DNA of 64,000 bases from Ramazzottius varieornatus (taxonomy: Eukaryota; Animalia; Tardigrada), in the NCBI GenBank assembly GCA_001949185.1, contig BDGG01000002.1, positions 5,136,448 through 5,200,447 of the forward strand, read 5' to 3'. Positions 10,456 through 28,608 of the stretch are shown here, in pieces. The stretch's first letter is position 1; each line of letters starts with the position of its first letter. The position numbers and the translations under genes were made by a program. Under the pieces are notes generated by a model. The model had not been told where the DNA came from and did not search any database. It saw only the letters and a list, made by a program, of their open reading frames with translations.

Positions 10456-13400
10456 ATGGCGCGACTCGCACCAGATGTCGAGTTTGTCAGACCACCGGAT
10501 GTTCCGGTCTTCTATCCTACGGAAGAGGAGTTTGCCAGTCCTATGTCCTACATTCATAGCATTAAGGATCAAGCGGAAAAGTTTGGCATGTGCAAGATTA
10601 TTCCGCCCAAGGTACTATAACCATAACTTCCCTGCTGTAACCTTTCTTTCGAATGTCTCCTCCACGAATATGCTGACTCTGTAAGGTATAAGCTATTGTG
10701 CACTACCGGGGTGATTGCCAGGACCGTATATAGACTATTCTTCACAGAGCTTCAAGCCTCCCTTTGCTGTAAATAAGGAGACCTTCAAGTTCAAAGCTCG
10801 CTACCAAAGGCTAAGTGATCTCGATGTAAGTCTTTTGTACAGTACTTCCGGTTAGCAAAAACCATGATTTCGTCGTTGGTTACTTCAGGGCTTCAGCAGA
10901 TCCCGTCACAGCTTCGCGTGTATGCTCCGAAGATTCTGGACTGACCAGGTACAGCATTGCCGCGATCAACCTCTCCCTTCATATGGCAGTACAGTCGCTA
11001 CAGGGTTGGCTCAGACGGCCTCAAATAACGCTGACCAATGTGTCTTTCTCTTTTAGGGGTGGCCAGCAGAGCTGCCTGTGCAGTCCGTAGGTGGAAAGTT
11101 CGTCGATTGGTATGACTTGTACATTGCCGTCCTCCGCATGGGAGGTTGTCGCAACACGAATACCATGCCTGATGGCTGGACATTTGTCGCCAAGTTCCTG
11201 GGAGTGGATTACAGCACACACCCAAATGCTCCGAAAGAATTAAGGCTTCTCTACGAAAAGAACCTCTTACCATATGACGACTTCCGGGCGAACGTGGAAC
11301 TTCTCCTTGGCGTATGTTCGCACTCTTCCATCTCTGCAATGACTTCTATACCTAGTTTATACGTGTACCGAACATTACCTGTTACTTTCTTGCTGTAGAA
11401 AGACAAGGATTTCTGCAAAAGCGGTCCGATGAACAAGAGTGCGGGCTGCCGACGTCTGAAGAAGGAATGTGAGCGAGACACACCGACAGTTCCTGAACCG
11501 GAACCGGATGCGAAAGACGGTGAAACCAGTAAGGCGGGTACTGACGATCAGGTCGATGGGGTCCTCCAGGAGACGGACGTTTCTAACAAGGGTCTTAGTA
11601 CACCTGAGAAGAACGAAGCCAAACGACAGCGAGCGAGAAGATCGGCCTCCAATGTCTGCTATGTTAGTTCGCCTGACATGCTACTCTGCTTATTATAGCG
11701 CATCGCAACTACCCTTAAGTTTCACATTAGCGTTACCATCGGTTCTTCTTTACAGTCGGAAGTAGTTTGTGAAGTCTGCAAAGAGACCGACGAATTCGAT
11801 AACCTGAAATTTTGCGAGAAGTGTGAAACCACCTACCACCATCGATGCATTCCCGCTGGTATCCGCAGAGACAAAGCTAAGCTGTGGTTATGTCCGAAGT
11901 GCATGAAAGAGGTGAGAATTTACCTCTTTAGTTCATGAGTTAAGCCTTTTGTGTATTACGAACGTGGATCCTTTCCATAGACTTACGAAGGTTTACGAGC
12001 CTGTCACTTCTTCGGGTTCGAGCATACATCAACCACCTACACACTGGACGACTTCCAGCGAAAGGCCAACGAGTTCAAGAAGCACCACTTCGGTTCGTAC
12101 AATGTGGGGCTGAACGTGGTGGAAGCAGAGTTCTGGCGGTTACTAGCCGATGCCAACGATGAAACGGTCGTCGAGTACGGTGCGGACTTGCATCGTGGCG
12201 AGTTGGGTAGCAGCGGGTTTCCCACTGACAACGATCGACCGTTCCTTCGCGAGTCAGAGAAGGAGTACATCGATCATCCTTGGAACTTGAACAAACTTCC
12301 CGACGATAACCTTTCCATTCTTAAACATATCACTGTGCAGATTTCGGGCATGAAAGTGCCCTGGATGTATGTCGGCATGGTTTTCAGCGCTTTCTGTTGG
12401 GTAAGGAACGATGGGAGCTGAGTAAATAAGTCGACAGGACTTTTTCCCAAGTGGCGCACGTTCTCGGTGTTATTGGCTGCGTCACTTGGATAAACGATAT
12501 AGTCAAGTTTATTTACTAAGGGGATAAATATCCAGTCTGCTTATCTGTTATGTTTGATGTGGATCATTCTTGTGTCTGCAGCACACGGAGGATCACTGGA
12601 GTGCGTCGATCAACTATCTTCACCTAGGCGAGCCGAAAACCTGGTATGGTGTTCCAGGCAGCTCAGCAGAAGCCTTCGAGACTGCCTTCAAGCAGCAAGT
12701 GCCCGTCTTGGCCGAGTCAAATCCCGACCTTCTTCACCAGCTCGTCACCCACATGAACCCGATGGTCCTTCAACGATGCGGCATACCAGTCTACCGAGCT
12801 GACCAACGGGCTGGTGAATTTATCGTAACTTTTCCTCGAGCATACCATGCAGGCTTCAACCAAGGCTTCAACTTCGCTGAAGCAGTCAACTTCTGCCTTG
12901 CCGACTGGGTACGTTTTTTTCCCTCAACACTTTACTGTATTCCCTCGATGGTTTCGCGAATCACGTCATCATGCCAGTAAACTATACCCGCACTGACATC
13001 ACTGATCGTCTGATTGTCGGCCATCACGGAACCTTGATTGGCGAGTAAACGTTGATTGAAGATGGAGGCATTTTCCATCCCCGCCGGGTAATATTTACGT
13101 TGACCGTCACGTGATTCGCGAAACCAAGGGAATACAGTACTTGTTTCGAACCCATTTTTCAGTAGATGGACTTTTCACCCACCTGTATATTTGTCCATCA
13201 CACTAAATGTGTGGTCCGCCGTATGCAGGAGCGTGATAAAGTAGACTGACTTGAATCAATTACAAGTCTCTCAAGTACTTTGTGTACCTGCGTACACAGC
13301 GTCTGTGTTTCGCCGTATTGTTTGTGTATGCAGGTGATCTAAAGTAGGCAAGAACATCAGCGCTACCCATTCCTTGCTCTCAGTGCTATTGGGTCCTGAT

Positions 13401-16400
13401 GTGCGATTGTTTTGCAGATTCCTCATGGTCGGCTGAGTATTGGGCATTACTCCAACTGTAAGCGCGAGCTGGTCTTCAGTCACGACGAGCTGATTTGCTG
13501 CATGGCCGATCAGGCCGATGCGCTGCACCAGAGTGTGGCCAAGGCCTGCCATATGGACTTCGCAGCGATGATCCAGGATGAGAGGAACGTCAGGGATGGT
13601 CTGGTGAGCAGAGGGGTGACTCTGGATGACGAGCCGACACTCTTCGAGTTCATGGACGACCACGAAAGAACGTGCTCCACCTGCCACACGACCCTGTTTC
13701 TTAGTGCCGTGCAGTGTAGTTGCAGCGATGAACGACTGGGCTGTCTGAAACACGTGGTCGAGATCTGCCCGTGTGATGTCGCGCAGAAACGTCTACTGTA
13801 AGCATCCCCCGTATCTTGGATCATATAAATTGGAAAATCGCTGAAGAAGACCGTTTGTGTTCTCAGGTATCGATACACTATCGACGACTTGGGCTTCTTG
13901 CTGAGTAAACTTCTGAAACGGTCAGAGACTCTGGATCCTATTGAAGCGAAAGCGACGAACGATACTTACTATCAACCGAAACGAAACGGTAAGTCGGATA
14001 AATTGTGAATAGATTGAGTCCACTCAGTTTTGAAAACTGGAACGTCTCGTTGTTAGCGAAAGATGGGCACGATTTGAACGGGCGGTTCCTCCCAAAGAAG
14101 CCCAAGCTCTACTCGGAAGAGACGTTAGGACCCGTCCATTTCTTCACGGAAGATGGAATGATGGGTAACAGCGAGCTGAAGGCTGTCATGAAGATGGCCA
14201 GTGAGTTGGTCTCGCCGCAGACCATCACAAGGAACCGCGAGAACTACGACGGCCCTCCCACTGTCAAGAAGTGGAAGATTGCTGATGTTGAAGGCCTGGT
14301 TGGGTCTTTGCTGGCGTTCCCGGGCACCGGCAAGGAAGTCGCTCACGTTCGAGTATGTTTCTCGGTTCAAATTACTATCGTATGTGAACCGAGCTTAAGT
14401 CTTCTTTCTTAGGAATACTTGCGGAAGTACTACGCTTTGCAAGGTGACATTCGCGCTTGCCTTCTGGTGAAGGCCGAAGAACAACCGCTCGAGTCTGTGA
14501 AACGATTGTACGATCAGGCACGGTCTACTAACATTGAGATCGAAGACTCGCAGGAACTTCAGATGGTATGAATGTTCGTTTTGTTGGCTACTGATAATCT
14601 CCTTTCTCACTTTGTTCTAACTTGAGTTTTCTTCGCAGATCTTTCAGCAAACGGAGTTTCGTGAGCGAATCTTATCGGCCATCGCACATGGTAACTGTAC
14701 GATCCAGACGCTGGCCGAAGTCCTTCAGAGTGTCGATGAGGTCTACGTCCGGTCACCGTACATGGAAAGCTTGGCGGCACTGCTGACCAGCATGATCGAG
14801 GAAGGACGCAACATTGAGATCGCAGCTGAAAGCGTGGTTGCCAAAAAGTAAGCCACGTTATCCTCTCCTCCTTTCTTTTGGTTTCCGTACTTTTCTGATT
14901 GCCGGCCTTATCTTTTGCAGAAAGAAAATAACGTTCGCGGAAGCGAAGCGTCTGGTTGACCGAGCGGATGCCTATCCGGTCGATCTGAGGTACATTGACG
15001 GCATTCGAGATGGCATCGAAACTACCGGAAACTTACTGTCCAGTCTCGATGAAGCAAAGGTATTACTGTTTTTCGGAACACACCGTAGAAAAAAGTCGAA
15101 TTATCATTTTGGCGGCTGCTGTGACTAATCTTTTGCGTTTCCTTTGCGGAAATTGAATTCGAGTTACAGCCACAACAAAGACTAGAGTAATCAAGCCGTT
15201 CTGTGTCATTCCGACTAGAATGGTTCAAAACGTCTAGAACAAATCAATGTTTTTTTCTAATTAGAGTCTTCTAGTAACAACGTGAAACTGAATTACATTT
15301 CTGTTTTTTGATAGAATGGCGGGCGGAAAATTCATTACGATGAATTGAAGAATATCCTGAGTGACGAGGACCTTCTCATCTTTGAGTCTGATGATAGGCT
15401 CCAGCACGTCTGCAGGCTCTTCGATCGTGCCATAGAGTTCCTGACTCAGTTGAAGACTCTGTTCTTTGGAGTCTCCGACCACGGGACGAACAGTAACCCC
15501 AGTCAGAAACTGATTGACGTGCTGTGCCCACGGAAAACCAAGCGTCGCGAAGAGGCCATGAAGCCACCGCAACTCACGCTGGGTCGTGGCCGACCTAAAG
15601 ACTCTTCTCTGTCGGACTTGTCGAAACTGTCGCTGAAAGACGAGCCAAAGACGTTGAAGCTTCATCCATTGGACTTGGACTTTACGACCTATTATGACTT
15701 CAAGGAACTGGTACGTGGAAGATCAAACTAATGAATACTGGTTGTTGAGTTTGGGCTTCATCTTGCAGAAAAAGGTCTTTAAACGTTCGTGTCTGGACGA
15801 ACAGAGGTTCTTCGAGGACAAACGAACTGTCAACTTGCTAAAGTCAGCTATCGACACCGATGTCCGAGACGAATGTGGCGCGCTGCGTCGGGACCTACGC
15901 TGGTGTGTCTGCGGTGGTCAGCAACTGGGCATGATGATCCAGTGCGATAGCTGCTTCGACTGGTTCCATGGTAAGTCATTGGTCCAACTATGTCAGCGAA
16001 CTTTCGGTTAGGCTTTTGTTATTTGAACTTTTTGTCGAAGTCTGCGACCAGTCGTGAAAAGTTATTTTAGCTCATCCTGCCCTCTTTCTACGGAAAAGCT
16101 TATCAAGACTGTGTCTAGCACGGCCTTGACAGGCATCTCGTAGAAAAAGGGCCGTGATGAATGGATCTTCACCACTTGCGGCGACACAAACTGAAATTCT
16201 TTGTTATATTGATTGGATAAACTGTGAGTGTTTGCTTTGGAGAAAAGCTGAGATGGAGGTTAGGAGTTTTCTGGCTTGTAGTTTCGTGCACGAGGATAGC
16301 CGAGCTCATCTACGTGGAAGGTGTAGCCGAGTTTGGGTTGGTTCGTCAACTGGTGGAGAACATTCAGTTCATGTGCGATGGCTGTCAGCGTGGTGTCCGA

Positions 16401-17976
16401 CCTTCCCTCGAACTCTTGGCCAAGTTCCTGTTCGAGTACTCAGACGTCCAGACGTACATTACAGTCCCAGAGATGGACCTGCTGTCTCTGGTCCTCGCCC
16501 GCGCCGACAGGTGGCGACGAAACGCGTCTAACGTCGCACTGGAACTACCGTCAATTGTCCAGAAGATGAACGCGGTCTTCAGCAAGCAGCTAACAGGTAA
16601 GCAGACAGTGGATCTTTCGGTGGTTGATGAGTACTCTGATGGTTTGTCTTTCTGTCAACAGGTGAGCTGACCGACAAGGACTACATCATCAGTAGGGACT
16701 TGCGTCAGTACACTCGGGATGCCGTGGTGGCGCTCTTACTGGAAGGCAACCTGCTGGAAGTGAAGGTGCCGGAATGGATGTTCCTGTACGATTTCGTCCA
16801 TGAAAACTTTCGAAAGGAGATAAAGAATACCGAAGGAGAACTACAAGATAAACGGTAGTTCCGTCTAACGACTATTAGTAATTGTAATGAATTGAAATGA
16901 AATTGAAATGAATCAGATTGTCATCTTAAGTGACGCACACTGTCATGATTGTTGGATGAAAGTGTGCGCCACTTGAGAATCCGATCTTTACAATCATTTA
17001 CCGCCGTCCCAACTGATTAGAAGAATAAATTGAAAAGATGATCAACTAAATGGATTATTTCAGGTTGCGTCTGATGATACTGCCAATTCGCAGTACGCGA
17101 GTGCCGATCGCGATCGACATGATCTCACCGCTATTCAAAGAACTGAGCAAGACTTTCAAGATTGGCAGTCTGCTGCATCCTGAAGAGCGCATGGACGTCT
17201 CGTCATCGGAAGTGGGAAGAAGCTTCGCCAACTCGCTACCCAAGCGGGGCAGACCGAGGAATTCGGACCGAAAACATTGGAGGGAAACTCCAATCAGTGA
17301 CAACTTGTCACCTACACCCGAACCCGAAAAAGTCATTAAAGGTAGACCAGGAAGAAAGAAGGGTGGAAAGAACAAGAAGCGATGGCCGTCTTTGACGCCT
17401 CCGAAATACAACGGCGGTAAGCTACTTTCGTGCTGCCCCATTGTCATTCTCTTGACCCTGAACTGGTGATTCTCTTTCAGGAGCTTCACTGGAAAGGCAG
17501 AAGCAGGCAAGGATCGAAGAGACCGGACTTCAGAAAACGCCGGCCATGTCGACCAAGCGCCGTGGTCGGCCGCCTCGTTCTGAAAGATTGGTCAGCGCTG
17601 CACAGTCATCACGTAAGCTTTTCAGCATGAATAACCGTTGAAACTGTGTTGAACGTTCTTATTCTTGATGGGGTTTCAGCAGAAGCAATGGAGACGTGCT
17701 CAGGTTGCAAGGTCGACTTCCCTGCTGATGATCTTCCATCTGTCATTATGAATGGCCGGCTGGTCCCCATGTGCGAAGACTGCAAGGTAAGAATAACTTC
17801 CACACATATCGCATTGCGGAGATGAAGTTTTGAAGCAGCATTGTCTTTAGAGCGATAGGGATCGGTCCAGTCGGAATAGGGTGTCCGAATCGGCGTTCTC
17901 ATCAGATAGCAACTCATCGCGGTCCATTACGACAACCACAAGGACACGCATACGCCGCAAACGGATCTTCGACTAA
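10456..17976 (+). CDS. KDM5: Lysine-specific demethylase 5 (KDM5/JARID1/lid), multi-exon
   Basis: ATG at 10456. JmjN ([17 protein letters not shown]...FGMCKIIPP), ARID ([12 protein letters not shown]...[13 protein letters not shown]), PHD1 (CEVC...CEKC..YHHRC...WLCPKC), JmjC with intact Fe ligands (FCW|HTEDHW...[21 protein letters not shown]), C5HC2 finger ([17 protein letters not shown]...CLKH), PLU-1-like helical region, PHD2 (CVCG...[12 protein letters not shown]...FMCDGC). Last exon 17851-17976 ends RKRIFD*. Confidence 0.95.
12411..12522. mobile_element. Foldback/MITE-like element, family A copy 1 (KDM5 intron)
   Basis: AAGTGGCGCAC (12449-12459) is inverted against TGCGTCACTT (12478-12487), with flanking AGTAAATAA/TTATTTACT. 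The same core occurs at 16928, 20558, 33054 and 41975. Confidence 0.65.
12933..13139. mobile_element. MITE with ~32-bp TIRs and TA target-site duplication (KDM5 intron)
   Basis: ta|CTGTATTCCCTcgaTGGTTTCGCGAATCACGT (12935-12966) ... ACGTGATTCGCGAAACCAAGGGAATACAG|ta (13109-13137). TA flanks on both sides are typical of Tc1/mariner/pogo-superfamily elements. Confidence 0.8.
16072..16160. repeat. Imperfect inverted repeat/hairpin in KDM5 intron
   Basis: TCATCCTGCCCTCTTTCTACG (16072-16092) pairs with CGTAGAAAAAGGGCCGTGATGA (16139-16160); inner TCAAG/CTTGA also pair. Confidence 0.55.
16905..17010. mobile_element. Foldback/MITE-like element, family A copy 2 (KDM5 intron)
   Basis: AAGTGACGCACAC (16928-16940) / GTGTGCGCCACTT (16962-16974); ends in TTTACCGCCGTCCC (to 17010), like copies 3 and 5. 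Confidence 0.7.
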
Positions 17977-18823
17977 CAAACTTGCATTGTAGAGTAACGC
18001 TCTGAATTTCGTAAGATTGCATGACGGTCGTTTTGCTTGGTGGTAACTTTTACTGCTTACATTCATTGGTTCGACGAATTTCTCATCTCAGGACATTTTA
18101 CACGCTTGTTGAGCCTTGTACAGTACAAGACATGTAGCTGTCCCCATAGCACTTTGTGATATCTTTTGCCGTTTAACCTTACACCCACACAACACACTCG
18201 CGCTAGATACCTTGACGTCGAGCACTTTGATAATTAATTTATTATTGTGCGATTAAATTTCAGGAAACTGTTGCATCAGATTAATTTACCTTCTGCGTGG
18301 GACACTTTTACCAGCTTTTTCTTCGTTTTCTCGCTCGTGTTTTCGTTCTACAGTCGTTCAAATGGAGAAAAAAGACGAAAGCTTTAAGTTTCCTGCGTGA
18401 TTGTGTAGTACGTATAGGAGAGAACAACGTGGAGAGCGGCTTGACCATTCAAAACGAACAAGATGGCACAAGAACGATAACTACAAAAAATAACTAAAAC
18501 CTGCTTAAAAAGACGACGTTGAGAATAAAATCAATCAAAAGATGATTCTACGTAAAAATGTCAGCGTGGACCGTGCGGTATTGATTCTTAATTATGCAAG
18601 CAATAACTGCGAGAAGAAGTTAATAAGTCTAAGAACAGGCGAGTCTAACAAAAACTTTGTCTCTGAAATTAGAAGAGAAATTTGGAAACTATTTGTTCCG
18701 AGTAAAAACCATTCCCTTCGCTGCTTCTTTATTCAGTCTCCGGACGTGACATAACCACCTAAAGGAACAAAAATGAAATTCAGAACAAGTGAAAAGACGC
18801 GCAAAAGCACCGCATACTTACGA

Positions 18824-21800
18824 TTACGAAGTAGACGCTTCGGCGTTCGGCGCAGCTGTTCCTTCCGTACTATTCGCTTCCGTCACTGGCGGTTCAGCTC
18901 CAGGCATCGGTATCTCTGACAGCACAATGGCGGACGCAGGTTGCGGACTAACTCTGTTCTCTTGGGACTCGTCAACGATGCGTAGACGAGGGTTGTCTTC
19001 TTCTTCGTCCGAGCTGGCATACGACACCAGCGGGACATGAGAACCATTTGTCGGTTTCGTCGCAAAATCTTCTTTCGGGTTCTCCACACCCACCGTCACT
19101 TCCGCAGGTTCTACAACTGGCTCACCAACAAACTCTGTCACTGCTTCTTCACTCGACTGCTTCCCTGCTTCCCCTTCCGGCTCGCTAACGATGGGACCAG
19201 AAGCGGGTAACTCTTCTCGAGGGCCGTCTGTTTCCGTCTGACTAGACATTGTCGTCGACGACGACTCTTCGGTTATCACGACTTCTGTCACCTGACCAAC
19301 TTCCACAGCAAGAGGCGAATTCACATCATTCTTCACGTAAGACTCTGTACTGGGATCCACCGTCACTTTCGGAATTGTGGTTGCGTTATCTGAATCTACT
19401 ACGGTGGTGTCTGGAGTTTTGTTCCCTGTTGCAGCTTCTGTTACATGTTGTACTGAGTCAGTTTTGGTTTCTGGCTCCTCATCTGAACGAACTGGTTTAG
19501 GTGTCTCTTCAGTGGGAGAAGGTGCCACCATCGGAGGTGGGATTGAGCGTGGCATTATGACCGTCTCGGGCCTCTCAACCAGGGGTGGCTTTGGGGCTTC
19601 AGGGTGGACTGCCTCGGTGGGTGGTGTATTCAAGCGGTTCACACTGCCAGAGACGGCTGACTTGATGGCCTGGGTGGTAAGACCTCGTGGGTCGTGGAAG
19701 GTAGCGATGGTGGACAACATGGTCAGTGGACAAGGCTCACCTAGAGTCGCCGATGGAAGACTGGATTCTTTCACTGGAGGCATTGGCGGAACCTGAAAAG
19801 GTAAAAACTAAATTACTATCCGATCTTATGTTCTTGATAACAGATGCTTACTGGCATTTGCATTTGAGGCTGCATGTGTAGCTGGTTCACCACATCGCTG
19901 ACTGGCAGCTCCACCGCTGGCGTGGCTTTCTTCCGGCTCTTTCTCTTGGGTGATTCTTTAACAGGCACGTTCGCCGTTTCAGCTGGAACTGCTTTCTCCT
20001 TGGGCTGAGCCTGTCTACCCCGCTTTGGGGTCTCCGCCTTTGGCGCAGCAGCTGAAGAAGACTGTCCACGCCCCTTACTCCCTTCCGGAACATGTGGGAC
20101 AGGTGGTATGGGAGGCTGACTGGGCATAAAGTGCTGCGGGGACGCTCGTGCTTGGAAGGTGCCTTGCAGACCTTGAAGGCCGAGGTCTGGTGTACGGTTG
20201 GTCCGTCGTCCACCGGAAGAACTGCTATGGGTACTGTGAGTACTGGAAGCTCGCGGACCTTCTTTGGGCGACTCTTTACTGTGGATTGTGTGAGGTGAAG
20301 GCGTGTTTGATGGCTGACCGTGAAGGCCCGAAGAAGCTTGCTTGGCTCCAGCTGCCATCAAGTACGGCGAATACGCAGCGACACCTGCAACAATCAGCAC
20401 TAATTAGTCAACAAACGGGAAACGTCCTACCCTGTGAAAGTCCAATGGAATTTACCATCATAAATTCTAAAAATATCTTGTGGAGTGTTGAAAAAGTTCG
20501 AATCTTTCCGAAATTTTAGATGAGGTCGGCAAATGAATCGAACTAGCTCGTTTTCGAAAGTGACGCACGTTCTCATTGATATTGGTTGAAAGTGTGCGCC
20601 ACTTCGGAGAACGATCATATCATTTTACCGACGTCCCAAATTCATTTTTCTACGGACGGAAGAACTTCAGGTTTTGGACAGACTATTTCGTTATGGTCGA
20701 GAATGAGCTTGGAGCTATACCTAGAGGAGGAGAAGGAATCGAGAAATTGTTCAAAGCCTGCATAGCTCCGCTAATCACGCCAGTCAGCGGGTTACCACCA
20801 CCAGCAGCTCCTGGTCGTGCATCAGGCGAAGTCACCGACGACCTCATTGTCGCTGCACCTCGATTATTACCTCCAGCGGCTGCTGTCATCTGCTGCTGTT
20901 GCTGTTGCTGCTGCTGTTGCATGGCCATGCCGGCCATCATGGGGTTCTGGATCATCATCATGTTCCACTGTTCGGGGGTAGCTTGCGCAGGTAGACCCAT
21001 GGCGTTCGCGTACATGGCACTGCCGTACATGACGGGCGTGGTACTAGCGAAACCAGCGGGACTGCCAATGTGGCCTGGATAGAAGAAGGCCGGGTTGGCG
21101 TATGGAGAAAAGTAAGCAGCAGCGGCATTCTGTTGCTGGCCTTGAGAAGTGTAGGTGTTGGCGGAAGGCTGCTGGCGATAGGCGGTCGGTTGGGAAGTGG
21201 ACTGTTGTCCAAACTGCTGCTGCTGCTGCGGATTGCTCACCTGAAAGAAAAAACATCGAAACACATTAGATGAGATAATCTGAACCATACAGCCATACAG
21301 CAAATCCACGTGAGCGATCAGCACGCCAAAGAACGCCCACTTCATCCGCCTACGAACAACCAGCCTTATACTGCTAATGGTACCAGACTATACAGGTGCA
21401 TGACAGAACAAGATTGCTGCATCTACCGACTAAAAGCGTGTTGCACTTGCATACACTAGGTTATGTGTCAAGAATGGGATGGCAGTACGTAGGTACGTAG
21501 GAGCAAAGTTCGTTCTAGAGCTGTTCGTGCTCACCGGTGCGTTGCGAGGAACGAAAGGCGAAGGCGTCGTTGCGCGGAAGGGTGATGGCGTCATCGAAAA
21601 GGCTGCTGCTTGCTGATGGTATGCTTGCGCAGAGCTCCTCTGATGATCAGCCGAAGATACGGTTCTCCCTGCCACCGCTGAATCAGCGTGTTGAGGAAGA
21701 AATGATGCCTCGCTTGTATGAGGTCTTGTGTCGTACATCGGGCTTGCTGATGGGTGAACGTTGTGGGACGAGGAAGCGTTATGTTGCCGATGTGGTTGAT

Positions 21801-24800
21801 GACTGGGAGTTGGAGGGAATGTAGGTTGTTGTTGCGAAGGCGGTTGTGCTTGGTTAGGAAGAGTGGGTTCGCTATGCGAGGAAGGTCCACGTCGGTGGGG
21901 AACTGGCGCTGGCTGGGTATCTGGGGCATCTCGGGTCGTTTGTTCCTGCGGTTGAGCAGCCACTCGGGCCACTCTCTTGGCTGGACTTTCGTATGACCTA
22001 TTTGGATGTGCATGGGGGGAGGGAGGACTTGCAGGTGGCATCTGCGGCTTCACCAATGTCGGACTCCTCGCCTCATGTTCGTTCGAGTTCGCTGAGGTTC
22101 CTTCTCTGTCAGATACCTGTGCCGGCATACCTATTGAGAAGAAAGGAAACGTAACTCGACCTAAAGCGCACCCAGCAGTATCATCTGCGCAACATGCTTG
22201 AGACGTACGAGTAACAAGTAGAAAAAAGAAGACTTTCACGCACACACATACGGTAAGAATAACGAGGAAGCGGTTAAGATGTATGCAAGTTCGTGAAATA
22301 TTTCCCAAAACGTTATGTACCTGGCGATCTCTTGTCTGTGGTATCGTTTGCAGGTAGAGTAGCGGTCACATCGTTACTGGAAGCTGGAAAGGTCGTTTTT
22401 TTCTTTTCCGCAGGCTTGCGAGGTCGAACCTTGCGGATGTTCAGGGGGTTGAACGGTGGCGCGGCCTTCTCCTCCTTCTTGGCGACAGGAGGAGCTGCTG
22501 GTACGGGAACAGGCTCTGCATTTGCTGCTGGTTTCGGTGGTTCAGATCCTTCGGGTTCCGTGAGAGATTCGTCTTCACTTTCTTCCTTGTACGACAGAGG
22601 CTGCTTCTTGCCTCGACTGGGAGTATTGCGACTCGGGCTTTCGCTGCTGGACTTTGCACGCTTGGCTGGTTTACCTAAGAGAACGAAGCTGTACAAGAAA
22701 GGAAAGACATGCTGTTGTTAGAAAGGAAGAAAATACCGGCAGCTTTAGTCTTTGCAGAAGGAGCCCGCCCATTGGTCTTTCCGTTCTTCTTCGCGGGGAT
22801 TTTTTCGTCGTCGTCGGATGCTGATGAGCGGTCCTCTTGTTTAACTTCTGGTTTCTCGGCCGGCTTTTTCTTCGGCCTTCCTTTTGTCTTTACAGGTGGA
22901 GAAGCTGGCGGAGCTGGTTCAGAAACCATAATGACTACAGGTGGGGCAGCGGCGGCGGAAGACTTTCCGGAAGCGCGACCGCGAGTTATGGACTTTATGC
23001 GTTTGTTCGATAGTTTACTCAACGACCAACTCGGCTCATCGTCGTCGTCTGATTCGACACTCGGAGACTCCGTCGCACGCTTATTCTACCAAAGAGAACG
23101 TTCCAATACAAATTACGACATGGGAGAGAGCTATTGAAAACAGACCAGCTTTTTAGCCACCTGCATACATAACACCGTACTTTTAGCGAAGCGCTTGTGT
23201 GCAGGTGCTGTTGAACTGGCTTACTAGTCACCACGTCGGCCTACCTTGTTGGACTGCGCTCCGTTTTCCTCTTGGATACTTTCCTCGTCCTCTTCGTCGT
23301 TATCCTTTTCGACATCGTCGTCGCTTTCCTGAGTATCATCATCTTCATCCTCACTCACACTCATATCGTCATCGTCGTCTGAGGAGTAGCCTAGTTTCTT
23401 CGCGCTGGAACTCTTCCCGGCTGCCTTACCGCGTTTCACAGGAGTGCTTTTCTTGTTCTTGGCCGATGGCGGTCGGCCTCTCGGTCGTTTCTGTCCAGGT
23501 TCCGCTTTCGCCAGTCGCTTGTTCTTACTCTTCACTGTCGGACTCGTCGTAGCGGTTTTCCGCCCAGGCTTCTTGGCGCTCCGTTTCGGCGATGTCGTCG
23601 CTTTCCTCTTCTTCGTCGAAGTAGTGCTTTTCTCTGAAACCTCTGACTTGCTTATTTGCCGACTGGGCCTTCGCGCACGTGAGTTCATCTCTGAAACACG
23701 ATGTTATATTGAATATTCCAATTAGAAAAACAGTTCTCTCTGCCTCAACTACTGTAAAGTATAGTCGACGTGAAATTCCTGAAATATTTTGCAGTGCTTT
23801 TTCGGCTACTGTACTTTCTTGTGAAATAAGTTTGCAACTTCCAAATGGCCTTACCGATGCCCGGCGTGGGCGACGAAGACGTGGTGGTCAGTGCTGATCG
23901 GCCTGTGTCCCTCACGATACGGATTTCCTCCAGACGGGGATCGACTTTACGATCCTGGATGACATTGTAGTCCATGACGGTGACTGTTTGGTCTTTGTTA
24001 TTGTAGCTCTTCAAACACGCGGCGTACCATCGCTGGCTGGCGCCGTCTTTCCAGTAGACTTGGACACTTTGTCCAATCAGTTGTTTGTCTTTGTCGAAGA
24101 TAAGACGCTGCTGGTTTCTTCGTGCCTCGAACCAGTGGTTGATGGCAATCTGGTGGTCTTTGAGGACTGGCACGCTGGTCCCTTTGATATTTAGGGAAGT
24201 CTGAAATCAAATAAGATGCGTACAGAATGTATGGGAAGTCGGCGAACAGCTGCACGAACCTGCATGCATGAGCCCGCGCATTTACCGTACGACATGAATA
24301 TGCAGGTTTATGGAAATAATCTATACACTGTATCTGGTTGCAACGACCTGCATACGTACATCTGCCCATGTATCGTACAACAACGTAAACATGCAGGTGC
24401 ATGCGATCAGTCGCTATTATTCGCCAACTTCCCAAACGATTACCAAAATTTCCTAAAATTTTCAGGTTAGCTTACCTGTCGATCCTGGACTGGAAAGACG
24501 TACAGTTGATCCTTATCAACGAAATCAAGGCAGCTCTCCGCGAGTAAATGCACGGGTACACGGTTACGGGCGTGATAGTCGATATGATCCACCAAGGCCA
24601 AGTAGGTCTACAAACAGAAGCCTCACGTTATAATCAGACTGCGTTGAAAGCGGAATCGTGGATAACAAGTGTCATATAACGTACCGATGCAGGACGAAAC
24701 TGCTTTGGTGAATTCGCAGGAGCCTTGGAGCCTTTGGAAGCGCTGTGTCCAGAGGAAGATCCTGAAGAATCCTGTGTCTCCAACCACATCAACTTATCCT

Positions 24801-25260
24801 CGATCAAGAAGCAGCTGTAGTTGCCACCGTTCACGTTTTCGAAACTGTAATAAACGCAGAGCAACTCACTTCATGAATCAAACTGACACGTCAGTTTCAT
24901 AATATTATCATCTTATAGGCGAAAACTGACCGATCTTCTTCCGGAGTTTCGTGAAGGTAAATCCATTCATATTCCCGCAACGGATCTTTTCCGTCCCATT
25001 CAACACAAAACTGGAACAGATTTGAACATCAGTAAAGTACCCTCACCCGATTCTATTTAGATCGTAAATCTGACCTGTTGTTCTTCGTTGTTTGAATCTG
25101 TTTCCGTTGCGGCTCTGACGGTTCCAGTTATCCACTTGATGCTCTGCAGGTCATCACGCGCACTCGAATTGACACAACAAGCAAATCGCCGGCCAACAGC
25201 CACAAAATTCGCCTCCAGTTCCACGCTTCGATTAGCGGAAGCTTGCTGCGCGGAAGGCAT
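18824..25260 (-). CDS. KDM3B/JMJD1C-like N-terminal (Tudor/PWWP-like) module protein with AT-hooks and a long low-complexity tail; no JmjC domain
   Basis: Spliced N-terminus VGRRFACCV...KWITGTVRAATETD|FCVEWDG...EWI|FLIEDKLMW...FRPAS|TYLALVD...LDFV|PVLKD...LIGQSVQVYWKDGASQRWYAACL...TVTVMDYNVIQDRKVDP is colinear with the recalled JMJD1C N-terminus (LVGKRFLCV, WRAGVIRAVSH, VYVEFD, FLVEYHLIW, WPALTFKPLV, LNGYRVRVYRQDSATQWFTGII, TMIVMNDQVLEPQNVDP). Approximate exons 25260-25075, 25011-24930, 24816-24681, 24606-24477, 24199-23853, 23689-23244, 23086-22737, 22675-22321, 22130-21535, 21240-20721, 20384-19852, 19792-18824. Confidence 0.8.
20521..20637. mobile_element. Foldback/MITE-like element, family A copy 3 (intron of the KDM3-like gene)
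   Basis: GAGGTCGGCAAATGA...AAGTGACGCAC (20558) / GTGCGCCACTT (20594-20604)...TTTACCGACGTCCC (to 20637). Confidence 0.72.
20890..20920 (-). repeat. CAG/CAA trinucleotide tract encoding poly-Gln (10 Q)
   Basis: Plus strand ctgctgctgttgctgttgctgctgctgttgc, in frame as MQQQQQQQQQQM in the minus-strand gene. Confidence 0.85.
24232..24434. mobile_element. ~200-bp foldback element sharing family A termini (intron of the KDM3-like gene)
   Basis: TGGGAAGTCGGCGAA (24232-24246) / TTCGCCAACTTCCCA (24420-24434), with nested ACCTGCATG/CATGCAGGT pairs inside. Confidence 0.7.
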
Positions 25261-26355
25261 CTTGATCCGAATGAAATACTCGATCCGGACGTCGAAATGA
25301 ACCCCGATACCAACTCCAACAAATTCTGCCCAGAATCTGCGACGAAAACTCCACTTGATGCCTTTCAGTCACCGATAATCAGATAACCTTGTCATACAGT
25401 AACGATCCACTTTACGCAAACGCCTGAAAAACAAACAAAAATATTTCCATAAAACAATCCATTTATTCGACCACTGTGCCATTGATCAATCAATCAAACT
25501 TTCCACCAAAGCCATAAACAAACTAATCAGCCGATTAATCCAAAAGTTCGAAATAAACTCGACAACGGAGTTATCAGGGAGATTTCATTTTACAAAACTC
25601 ACCATTAGGGTTCAAGCGCTGTACATACCATCTTAGGCGAGCGATTGCTGGTGGCTGTCCATGAATGAATTCATAATGGATCCCGTCAGTTGACGCTGAT
25701 ATCAAAACGGCATTCACTGAATGATCAATGATCCAACCATGCAGATGTCTCCGAGATAACGCTGGCTTGTTTTCACTACAGCATCGCACAACTCTTTGCT
25801 AATGACTCCATCACCCAATATGACAATGTCCACTGGTACCGAGGAGGATAAAGGCCTATATAAAGGTGAAAGCAAAAGAGCAAGTTGTGACCATGATTAA
25901 ATCAAACAAATAATTTTGCAAATTAAAACCGCAAAGGAAAAGCGAGCTGGCTGTTTGCCCAAGACAGCTACGTTGCACTGCGTACGTACGACATGCGCCT
26001 CGGGTGAGCGCCCTTTGGTGATGGCGAAAGGTCTACCAGATGGCACCATCAGTCTCATGACGTCAAACAAACCATGACATAACACCGACATTTCTCCCTT
26101 TTGTGGGGCATTTCTTCGTTTTGTTATGTTATGGTCATGTCAATCAGCACGTGCGTAGGATAAACGGAGTTGATCGAATAAGATGACTTGATCAATTATT
26201 ACCACTCAACGCTCAACACGCAAAACTTCCACAATTTGCCATCGAAGGCTTTCAGCTTCCAGTCATTCCTTCCTTCGACCTATTCTAAGTTTACGCCTTT
26301 ACGGAGAGCAGCATACGATCAGGACTGGACAAGTGTGGCATCGACAAAACTCAGA
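25261..26355. promoter_or_regulatory. Divergent (head-to-head) promoter/5'UTR region shared by the KDM3-like gene and Tip60
   Basis: Start codons at 25260 (-) and 26356 (+); TATA-like TATATAAA at ~25857-25864. Assignment is from gene geometry only. Confidence 0.45.

Positions 26356-28608
<2,253 letters not shown>

Follow-up and report, generated by a model that had tools for sequence, protein, structure and literature searches.

Can an animal keep the chromatin-binding half of a histone demethylase as a gene of its own? The question is raised by a 64,000-nucleotide stretch of the tardigrade Ramazzottius varieornatus genome (GenBank assembly GCA_001949185.1, contig BDGG01000002.1, forward-strand positions 5,136,448 to 5,200,447; hereafter the window), in which a minus-strand gene at 18824-25260, RvY_05142, begins like the histone H3 lysine 9 (H3K9) demethylases of the KDM3/JMJD1 family and ends without their enzymatic part. 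We consider it probable that RvY_05142 is the N-terminal half (N-half) of KDM3 left by an old fission in eutardigrades, that it encodes a predicted non-catalytic chromatin scaffold, and that the enzyme has a separate gene, likely RvY_12665. A first-pass annotation made from the DNA letters had described a feature at 18824-25260; that observation is confirmed, and the interpretation built on it is partly supported.

We assembled the exon model from the minus-strand reading and a listing of splice signals. It runs from an ATG at 25260 to a TAA ending at 18824, with 12 coding exons, GT-AG introns and a single open frame of 4,671 nt. With exon 5 as the query, a database search returned a 1,556-residue protein (P0002), RvY_05142 of R. 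varieornatus, which is letter-identical to the model. Contigs from public runs, in a first set of four runs from four studies and a second set of four further runs, were treated as spliced RNA because GT-AG joints are present in them; no run is catalogued as RNA. These joints cover 10 of the 11 coding introns, with all ten in three of four runs and seven in the fragmentary fourth; intron 1 was not among the joints listed from the contigs of four public runs. Runs X10, X12 and X13 (over 16500-26000) represent a second strain or close form with about 1% letter differences, including in-frame insertions in the poly-Q tract (behind 21213) and the acidic tract (behind 23371), and no change is listed at the stop codon. 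The gene is laid out as follows.

18824..25260, minus strand: coding region of RvY_05142, the gene for the KDM3 N-half, 1,556 amino acids (model, protein identity and RNA-contig joints)
25260-25075, 25010-24931, 24844-24685, 24607-24476, 24200-23855 and 23690-23245, minus strand: coding exons 1-6
23085-22737, 22674-22321, 22130-21535, 21240-20721, 20384-19852 and 19792-18824, minus strand: coding exons 7-12
18821-18759, minus strand: 63-nt intron of the 3' untranslated region (UTR), starting 2 nt past the stop codon (RNA contigs)
24984..25200, minus strand: DUF7030 (PF22989), residues 21-71, exons 1-2, first beta-barrel of the KDM3 N-terminal module (Pfam 42.1 bits, cut-off 27; exon 1 alone, E 2e-7)
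24168..24810, minus strand: PWWP_KDM3B (PF22988), residues 101-197, exons 3-5 (Pfam 28.9 bits, cut-off 27)
23889..24083, minus strand: Tudor_KDM3B (PF22987), residues 226-290, exon 5 (Pfam 36.3 bits, cut-off 27)
22321..23690, minus strand: tracts rich in basic residues (K/R reaching 34%) and in acidic ones (D/E reaching 32%); two GRP cores, resembling AT-hooks, at residues 372 and 519, exons 6-8 (composition)
18824..22130, minus strand: Pro/Gln/Ser/Thr/Ala-rich low-complexity tail with a poly-Q run and no Pfam family, exons 9-12 (composition and Pfam)
19700..19732, minus strand: marginal match to the PLxWLA motif of KDM3, residues 1255-1265, which may be a relic or a look-alike (motif score)

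The start of the protein identifies its family. All three N-terminal Pfam families of KDM3B exceed their curated cut-offs within residues 21-290, which bears out the earlier view that this N-terminus is of KDM3/JMJD1 type; no further Pfam family was found in RvY_05142 with E < 0.1. The first 290 residues, used as a query, gave 46 matches among 1.84 billion representatives in a library clustered at 50%. We scanned 28 of these 46, and all six of at least 2,200 residues combined the N-terminal module with a JmjC domain; three were unrelated Tudor-repeat proteins, and the others were shorter and may be fragments. Since every long match in this sample bears a JmjC domain, the module is normally fused to the enzyme. 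Unnamed proteins with the module and no JmjC domain (P0018 of 1,043 residues, P0047 of 898 residues, P0028 and P0037) may be fragments and were not counted as further splits, although P0018 and P0047 may alternatively represent such splits in other animals.

The enzymatic part could not be found in RvY_05142. We built a profile of the C-terminal half (C-half) from the last 900 residues of six full-length KDM3 proteins and one zinc-finger fragment; it recovered its seven source proteins and gave no match in RvY_05142 or in the six frames of the window (best E 0.92). A tblastn search of the window with the six full-length proteins gave convincing matches in the exons of the N-terminal module only. 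By Pfam and the C-half profile, and with transcripts that end in UTR, RvY_05142 has no JmjC domain with iron- and 2-oxoglutarate-binding residues, and by the C-half profile and its residues past 290, which include one cysteine and no CxxC, it has no KDM3 zinc finger of C2HC4/C6 type. The first-pass annotation was thus right that both are missing. Full-length KDM3/JMJD1 proteins (human KDM3A, KDM3B and JMJD1C; P0008, P0024, P0025, P0033, P0044 and P0045) have the same order of DUF7030, PWWP_KDM3B and Tudor_KDM3B followed by a long low-complexity region, whereas RvY_05142 lacks the zinc finger, the JmjC domain and the LKKAWL motif and ends at residue 1,556, about where the others reach the zinc finger (residues 1,493-1,772). 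Judged by its domains, RvY_05142 is the N-half of KDM3 and not a KDM3 enzyme.

RvY_05142 is also a real, spliced, independent and complete transcription unit, with its coding sequence ending at 18824 and KDM5 beyond it on the plus strand, as had been claimed. In three of the four further runs, and in X1 and X12 pieces of the first set, contigs retain the stop codon, splice out the 63-nt intron and continue as UTR towards KDM5. The stop codon lies in a short tandem repeat (18816-18830) with two GT donors 6 nt apart; the upstream donor would bypass the stop and add about 22 residues, and all crossing contigs skip 63 nt, which corresponds to the downstream donor. Among the RNA contigs of RvY_05142, from which rare isoforms are dropped, no loose ends at exon boundaries lead to foreign sequence. 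Splicing onward to a JmjC exon was not seen in these contigs, which rare read-through or trans-splicing could escape. A 23-residue frame past the stop that by eye resembled the start of a JmjC region was rejected, because, among 600 random peptides from the window, 39% equal its score with 9-residue windows and 21% with 12-residue windows. The 3' UTRs of KDM5 and RvY_05142 converge at 17950-18760 and probably overlap, with RNA contigs passing from one into the other; AATAAA signals are found at 18524 on the plus strand and ending at 18733 and 18243 on the minus strand. Several contigs merge the two genes through this overlap, so that merging does not demonstrate a single transcript.

Past residue 290 the protein continues for about 1,270 residues that are basic, then acidic, then rich in Pro, Gln, Ser, Thr and Ala, which agrees with the earlier description of a tail of more than 1000 residues with such a composition and poly-Q. 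That description also likened a segment of the last exon, PLTMLSTIAT, to a KDM3 motif. PLxWLA lies C-terminal to the zinc finger in all six full-length KDM3 proteins, and PLTMLSTIAT is indeed the best tail match to it; the likeness is nevertheless marginal, since it scores 17 where true members score 32-43, and 2.75% of 2,000 local shuffles attain as much. It is also one of four motifs tried in the tail, of which the other three were reached by 24%, 5% and 60% of shuffles. We tested PLxWLA directly because an all-column scan had picked other columns for the same site; in that scan the tail gave no sign of a C-half relic, its score being equalled by 47-49% of shuffles.

If the N-half stands alone, where is the enzyme? 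A likely answer comes from tables published as supplements by Anoud et al. 2024 (PMC11233135; files 5, 6, 7, 9, 12, 13 and 14, with files 5, 6 and 12-14 covered up to about 4 million characters), which list best BLASTP hits at e < 0.05 and include some weak matches. According to file 5, the Hypsibius gene BV898_14161 has as best hits human JMJD1C, RvY_05142 and Paramacrobiotus LOC129599018, with no fly or worm hit. The following locus, BV898_14162, is annotated as KDM3A by eggNOG and JmjC by Pfam, and its best hits are human KDM3A, fly Kdm3, LOC129599023 and RvY_12665. The two Paramacrobiotus loci lie on one scaffold, where they are the sole two among the rows listed, whereas RvY_12665 (GAV02052.1), annotated as hypothetical, lies on BDGG01000007 and RvY_05142 on BDGG01000002 (PMC11233135). 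In the rows shown, the other JmjC genes point to RvY genes other than RvY_12665, and among those listed in files 5 and 6 RvY_12665 is matched by no other Hypsibius gene. Caenorhabditis elegans lacks KDM3 (PMC3623819) and its cell is empty for BV898_14162, so that the cut-off of the table does not force a match in a species without KDM3. Separate genes for the catalytic half are thus annotated in Hypsibius and Paramacrobiotus, and in Ramazzottius the best hit RvY_12665 is the candidate for one. Fission with a separate catalytic gene, which the first-pass annotation had put forward as a possibility, is well supported by this best-BLAST table for three tardigrades, with a C-half that is putative in Ramazzottius.

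The same tables give a first view of the two halves in Hypsibius. Untreated animals gave read counts, not corrected for length, of 3,572 (N-half) and 692 (C-half), and after irradiation both fall (log2 -0.84 and -0.57, respectively). The N-half is present in the proteomics table, with values of 8 and 161.04 under blank header cells, which we interpret as peptides and kDa, whereas the C-half accession is absent from its 5,627 rows. Three isoform accessions are listed for the N-half alone (PMC11233135).

Other searches added little. Word-based searches for full-length tardigrade orthologues returned only RvY_05142 (in the second, scoring was limited to the 7,991 best-sharing candidates), and the close relatives from the 50% library were all short; these blanks are weak because the published table lists such proteins. 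Metagenome contigs contained no related locus (595 pattern matches, none confirmed), and no RvY_12665 or KDM3 row was present among the rows listed in the supplement of PMC12941274 or in file 14 of Anoud et al. The g12665 of PMC9145152 was considered as RvY_12665 and rejected, as its numbering differs (g241 corresponds to RvY_00334), and it has no bearing on RvY_12665. In Acutuncus, the KDM3 row says nothing about the split, as its transcript cluster, Aant_geneID_rb_1661, also takes in the match of a cytochrome P450, BV898_14163 (PMC11233135, files 12 and 13). In Hypsibius this P450 locus follows the C-half, which hints at the same neighbourhood. RvY_12665 adjoins RvY_12666, a cytoplasmic IDH1 that makes the 2-oxoglutarate used by JmjC enzymes; this is probably chance (PMC11233135, file 5).

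Gene order suggests how the halves came apart. Window positions 10900-28600 hold a series of chromatin regulators: KDM5 (ARID, JmjC and C5HC2) on the plus strand beyond the 3' end of RvY_05142, the KDM3 N-half on the minus strand, and KAT5/Tip60 upstream of it on the plus strand; an Ets factor is a further neighbour. KAT5 stands head to head with the N-half: its contigs begin near 26221, and N-half coverage extends to about 25976. In Hypsibius, IQSEC1, KDM5, KAT5 and Ets are consecutive (BV898_02177-02180), and they are also on one Paramacrobiotus scaffold (PMC11233135). The same genes in Ramazzottius are RvY_05140, 05141, 05143 and 05144, with the N-half inserted as 05142 between KDM5 and KAT5. 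The simplest history would be that KDM3 broke in place before the Hypsibioidea and Macrobiotoidea parted, more than 250 million years ago (PMC11233135), and that in the lineage of Ramazzottius the N-half was later relocated to between KDM5 and KAT5.

What could an N-half do by itself? The predicted structure of the module (pLDDT 76.9, pTM 0.67) is mainly beta with one long helix. The PWWP range of the model (103-218) superposes on the BRPF1 PWWP with Z 6.7 (rmsd 4.0, 91 aligned), and the Tudor barrel on the Tudors of RDM15 (Z 8.2, rmsd 1.7, 58 aligned) and PHF19 (Z 7.8, rmsd 1.9, 56 aligned); the third barrel is thus modelled with a Tudor fold. The top Foldseek matches of the whole module were, in keeping with the Tudor-type fold expected by the first-pass annotation, the triple Tudors of SETDB1 and Spindlin1 (E 3e-5 to 1e-3), readers that likewise have three barrels in series, and the ESM Atlas gave only Tudor-type leads, below 0.85. 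TM-scores were only 0.15-0.18 with rmsd 16-22 A, so that the packing appears to differ from SETDB1 and Spindlin1 and the predicted fold alone is shared. To our knowledge, the N-terminal module of KDM3B/JMJD1C has no known ligand. After the tyrosine of Tudor strand 1, RvY_05142 and two close relatives (86-91% identical) have a tryptophan, Trp236, in contrast to Arg in 34 of the 35 other KDM3-type rows and Tyr in one (40 of the 48 stored proteins fit the pattern, and two further Trp rows are unrelated Tudor repeats). In a weak alignment, Trp236 falls on the second Trp of the RDM15 Tudor, which we take to be a cage residue. The gain of a methyl-lysine pocket is a lead suggested by the alignment, not a result.

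Based on these features, we propose that three Tudor/PWWP-type barrels and basic GRP tracts would hold the N-half on chromatin, while its disordered tail may gather transcription factors and cofactors. Such a role would resemble that of human JMJD1C, whose N-terminal disordered region, independently of catalysis, forms condensates and binds RUNX1, and whose N-terminal region leukaemia cells likewise require for survival (PMC12120245). The C-half would demethylate H3K9 largely alone, like N-terminally truncated KDM3A, which stays active on H3K9me1/2 (PMC3623819). With known stand-alone abilities on both sides, fission may have been tolerated, and the N-half would act as a nuclear scaffold in excess over the enzyme. 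With the N-half apparently several times as abundant as the C-half in Hypsibius, the halves would reunite only in part, if at all; by our own estimate a stable complex is possible but the less probable outcome.

Several points weigh against this explanation. RvY_12665 is a C-half candidate known from a best BLASTP hit at e < 0.05, and the genes around it have their Hypsibius matches on other scaffolds, so that synteny lends no support to its orthology. The arrangement of the Hypsibius and Paramacrobiotus halves is that of the annotated loci. The Tudor has a partial aromatic cage only (Trp236, Tyr245 and, at the third position, Met263, in a weak RDM15 alignment with E 0.49), and the PDB copy searched contained no solved structure of a KDM3 N-terminal module. 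In a 21-row tree the module is a long branch (3.97 changes per column), so that its placement is unsure, and this also fits a relaxed or changed function.

Splits of this kind are known in flies, and they bear on whether the halves still work together. Drosophila Cmi (Lpt) and Trr, the split halves of MLL3/4, likewise place readers and catalysis in two genes in one animal lineage, but they combine PHD clusters with a SET methyltransferase and histone binding has been shown, whereas the tardigrade genes encode Tudor barrels and JmjC and histone reading is predicted only (PMC10570056). Drosophila dADD1 and dAtrx, a split ATRX, are also a reader gene and an enzyme gene whose halves have independent roles as well; direct binding of dADD1 to dAtrxL after fission has been shown (PMC4249797), whereas binding between the tardigrade halves is hypothetical. 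By analogy with both pairs, the two products could be obligately reunited, with the halves rebuilding the KDM3 holoenzyme in trans and the N-half as targeting subunit. The annotations of three tardigrades retain both halves, and irradiation of Hypsibius lowers the counts of both, as such a complex would allow. We nevertheless regard obligate reunion as a minority possibility, given the approximately 5-fold count difference between the Hypsibius halves, the C-half unlisted in the proteome, and a conserved docking motif that could not be demonstrated among the four motifs tried in the tail. Flies argue in the same direction. Drosophila Kdm3 (CG8165) is the best fly hit of the tardigrade C-half, while the fly proteome has no match to the N-half at e < 0.05, so the enzyme can manage without an N-half; by this weak test, what survives as a gene in tardigrades seems to have been lost in flies. 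Fly Kdm3 is presumably short.

The origin of the split could also differ from a break in place. A tandem duplication of whole KDM3 followed by complementary decay, in which zinc finger and JmjC were lost one by one from the RvY_05142 copy while a relic of the motif between them survived, fits the adjoining Hypsibius halves and is the route proposed for cmi/trr (PMC4249797). Because PLxWLA follows the zinc finger in full-length KDM3, as seen in six of six proteins, the tail motif would, if real, favour this route; its p of about 0.03 before correction is not significant across four motifs, and the all-column scan yields no relic. We regard this origin as rather unlikely, and functionally its outcome would be the same as that of fission. 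It is improbable that Ramazzottius has lost or disabled the catalytic half, leaving RvY_05142 as a scaffold without its enzyme, in which case RvY_12665 would be a match that is weak, unrelated or dead. RvY_12665 is indeed annotated only as hypothetical, identified by best hit, and not in synteny with the Hypsibius KDM3 locus, yet C. elegans, without KDM3, gives no match in the same table, and no other Hypsibius gene among the rows listed in files 5 and 6 points to RvY_12665. Least probable of all, and in our judgement very improbable, is a recent split in Ramazzottius only, with the locus pairs of the other two genera each being one gene cut by annotation. Those loci are neighbours or near-neighbours and come from annotation rather than transcripts; against this, two independent annotations each give two loci, and in Hypsibius the N-half alone has three isoform accessions and a count some 5-fold that of its partner. 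Fission with a separate catalytic gene therefore remains our preferred explanation.

The first-pass annotation had offered the locus as its best candidate for an undescribed system, which the fly pairs contradict: reader/enzyme fission is a known kind, and the split KDM3 is the new part, as far as the searched open-access literature shows. Literature searches covering open-access full text, and not supplements or subscription journals, found no split KDM3. In flies KDM3 is treated as a single gene, with no split mentioned in the passages seen (PMC2579438, PMC4594552 and PMC10081847).

In conclusion, half of the tardigrade KDM3 has been missed by annotation, in which the N-half is labelled hypothetical or NAC-alpha-like. 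Only tentatively would we extend the proposal to a two-gene KDM3 maintained in eutardigrades for more than 250 million years, in which an abundant, stand-alone triple-barrel reader, with a very large disordered tail and a cage tryptophan gained after the split, recruits a scarce catalytic subunit in trans, the two genes being unlinked in Ramazzottius; this extended version is doubtful as a whole. If true, the unexplained N-terminal module of KDM3 would here for the first time be separated from the enzyme by nature, giving a ready system for finding the ligand of this module. That the N-half is kept as its own, apparently abundant gene points to a selectable function without the enzyme, and reader or scaffold roles may be separable from demethylase roles by knockdown. 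KDM3 would thereby join the short list of chromatin enzymes that have been split in one animal lineage.

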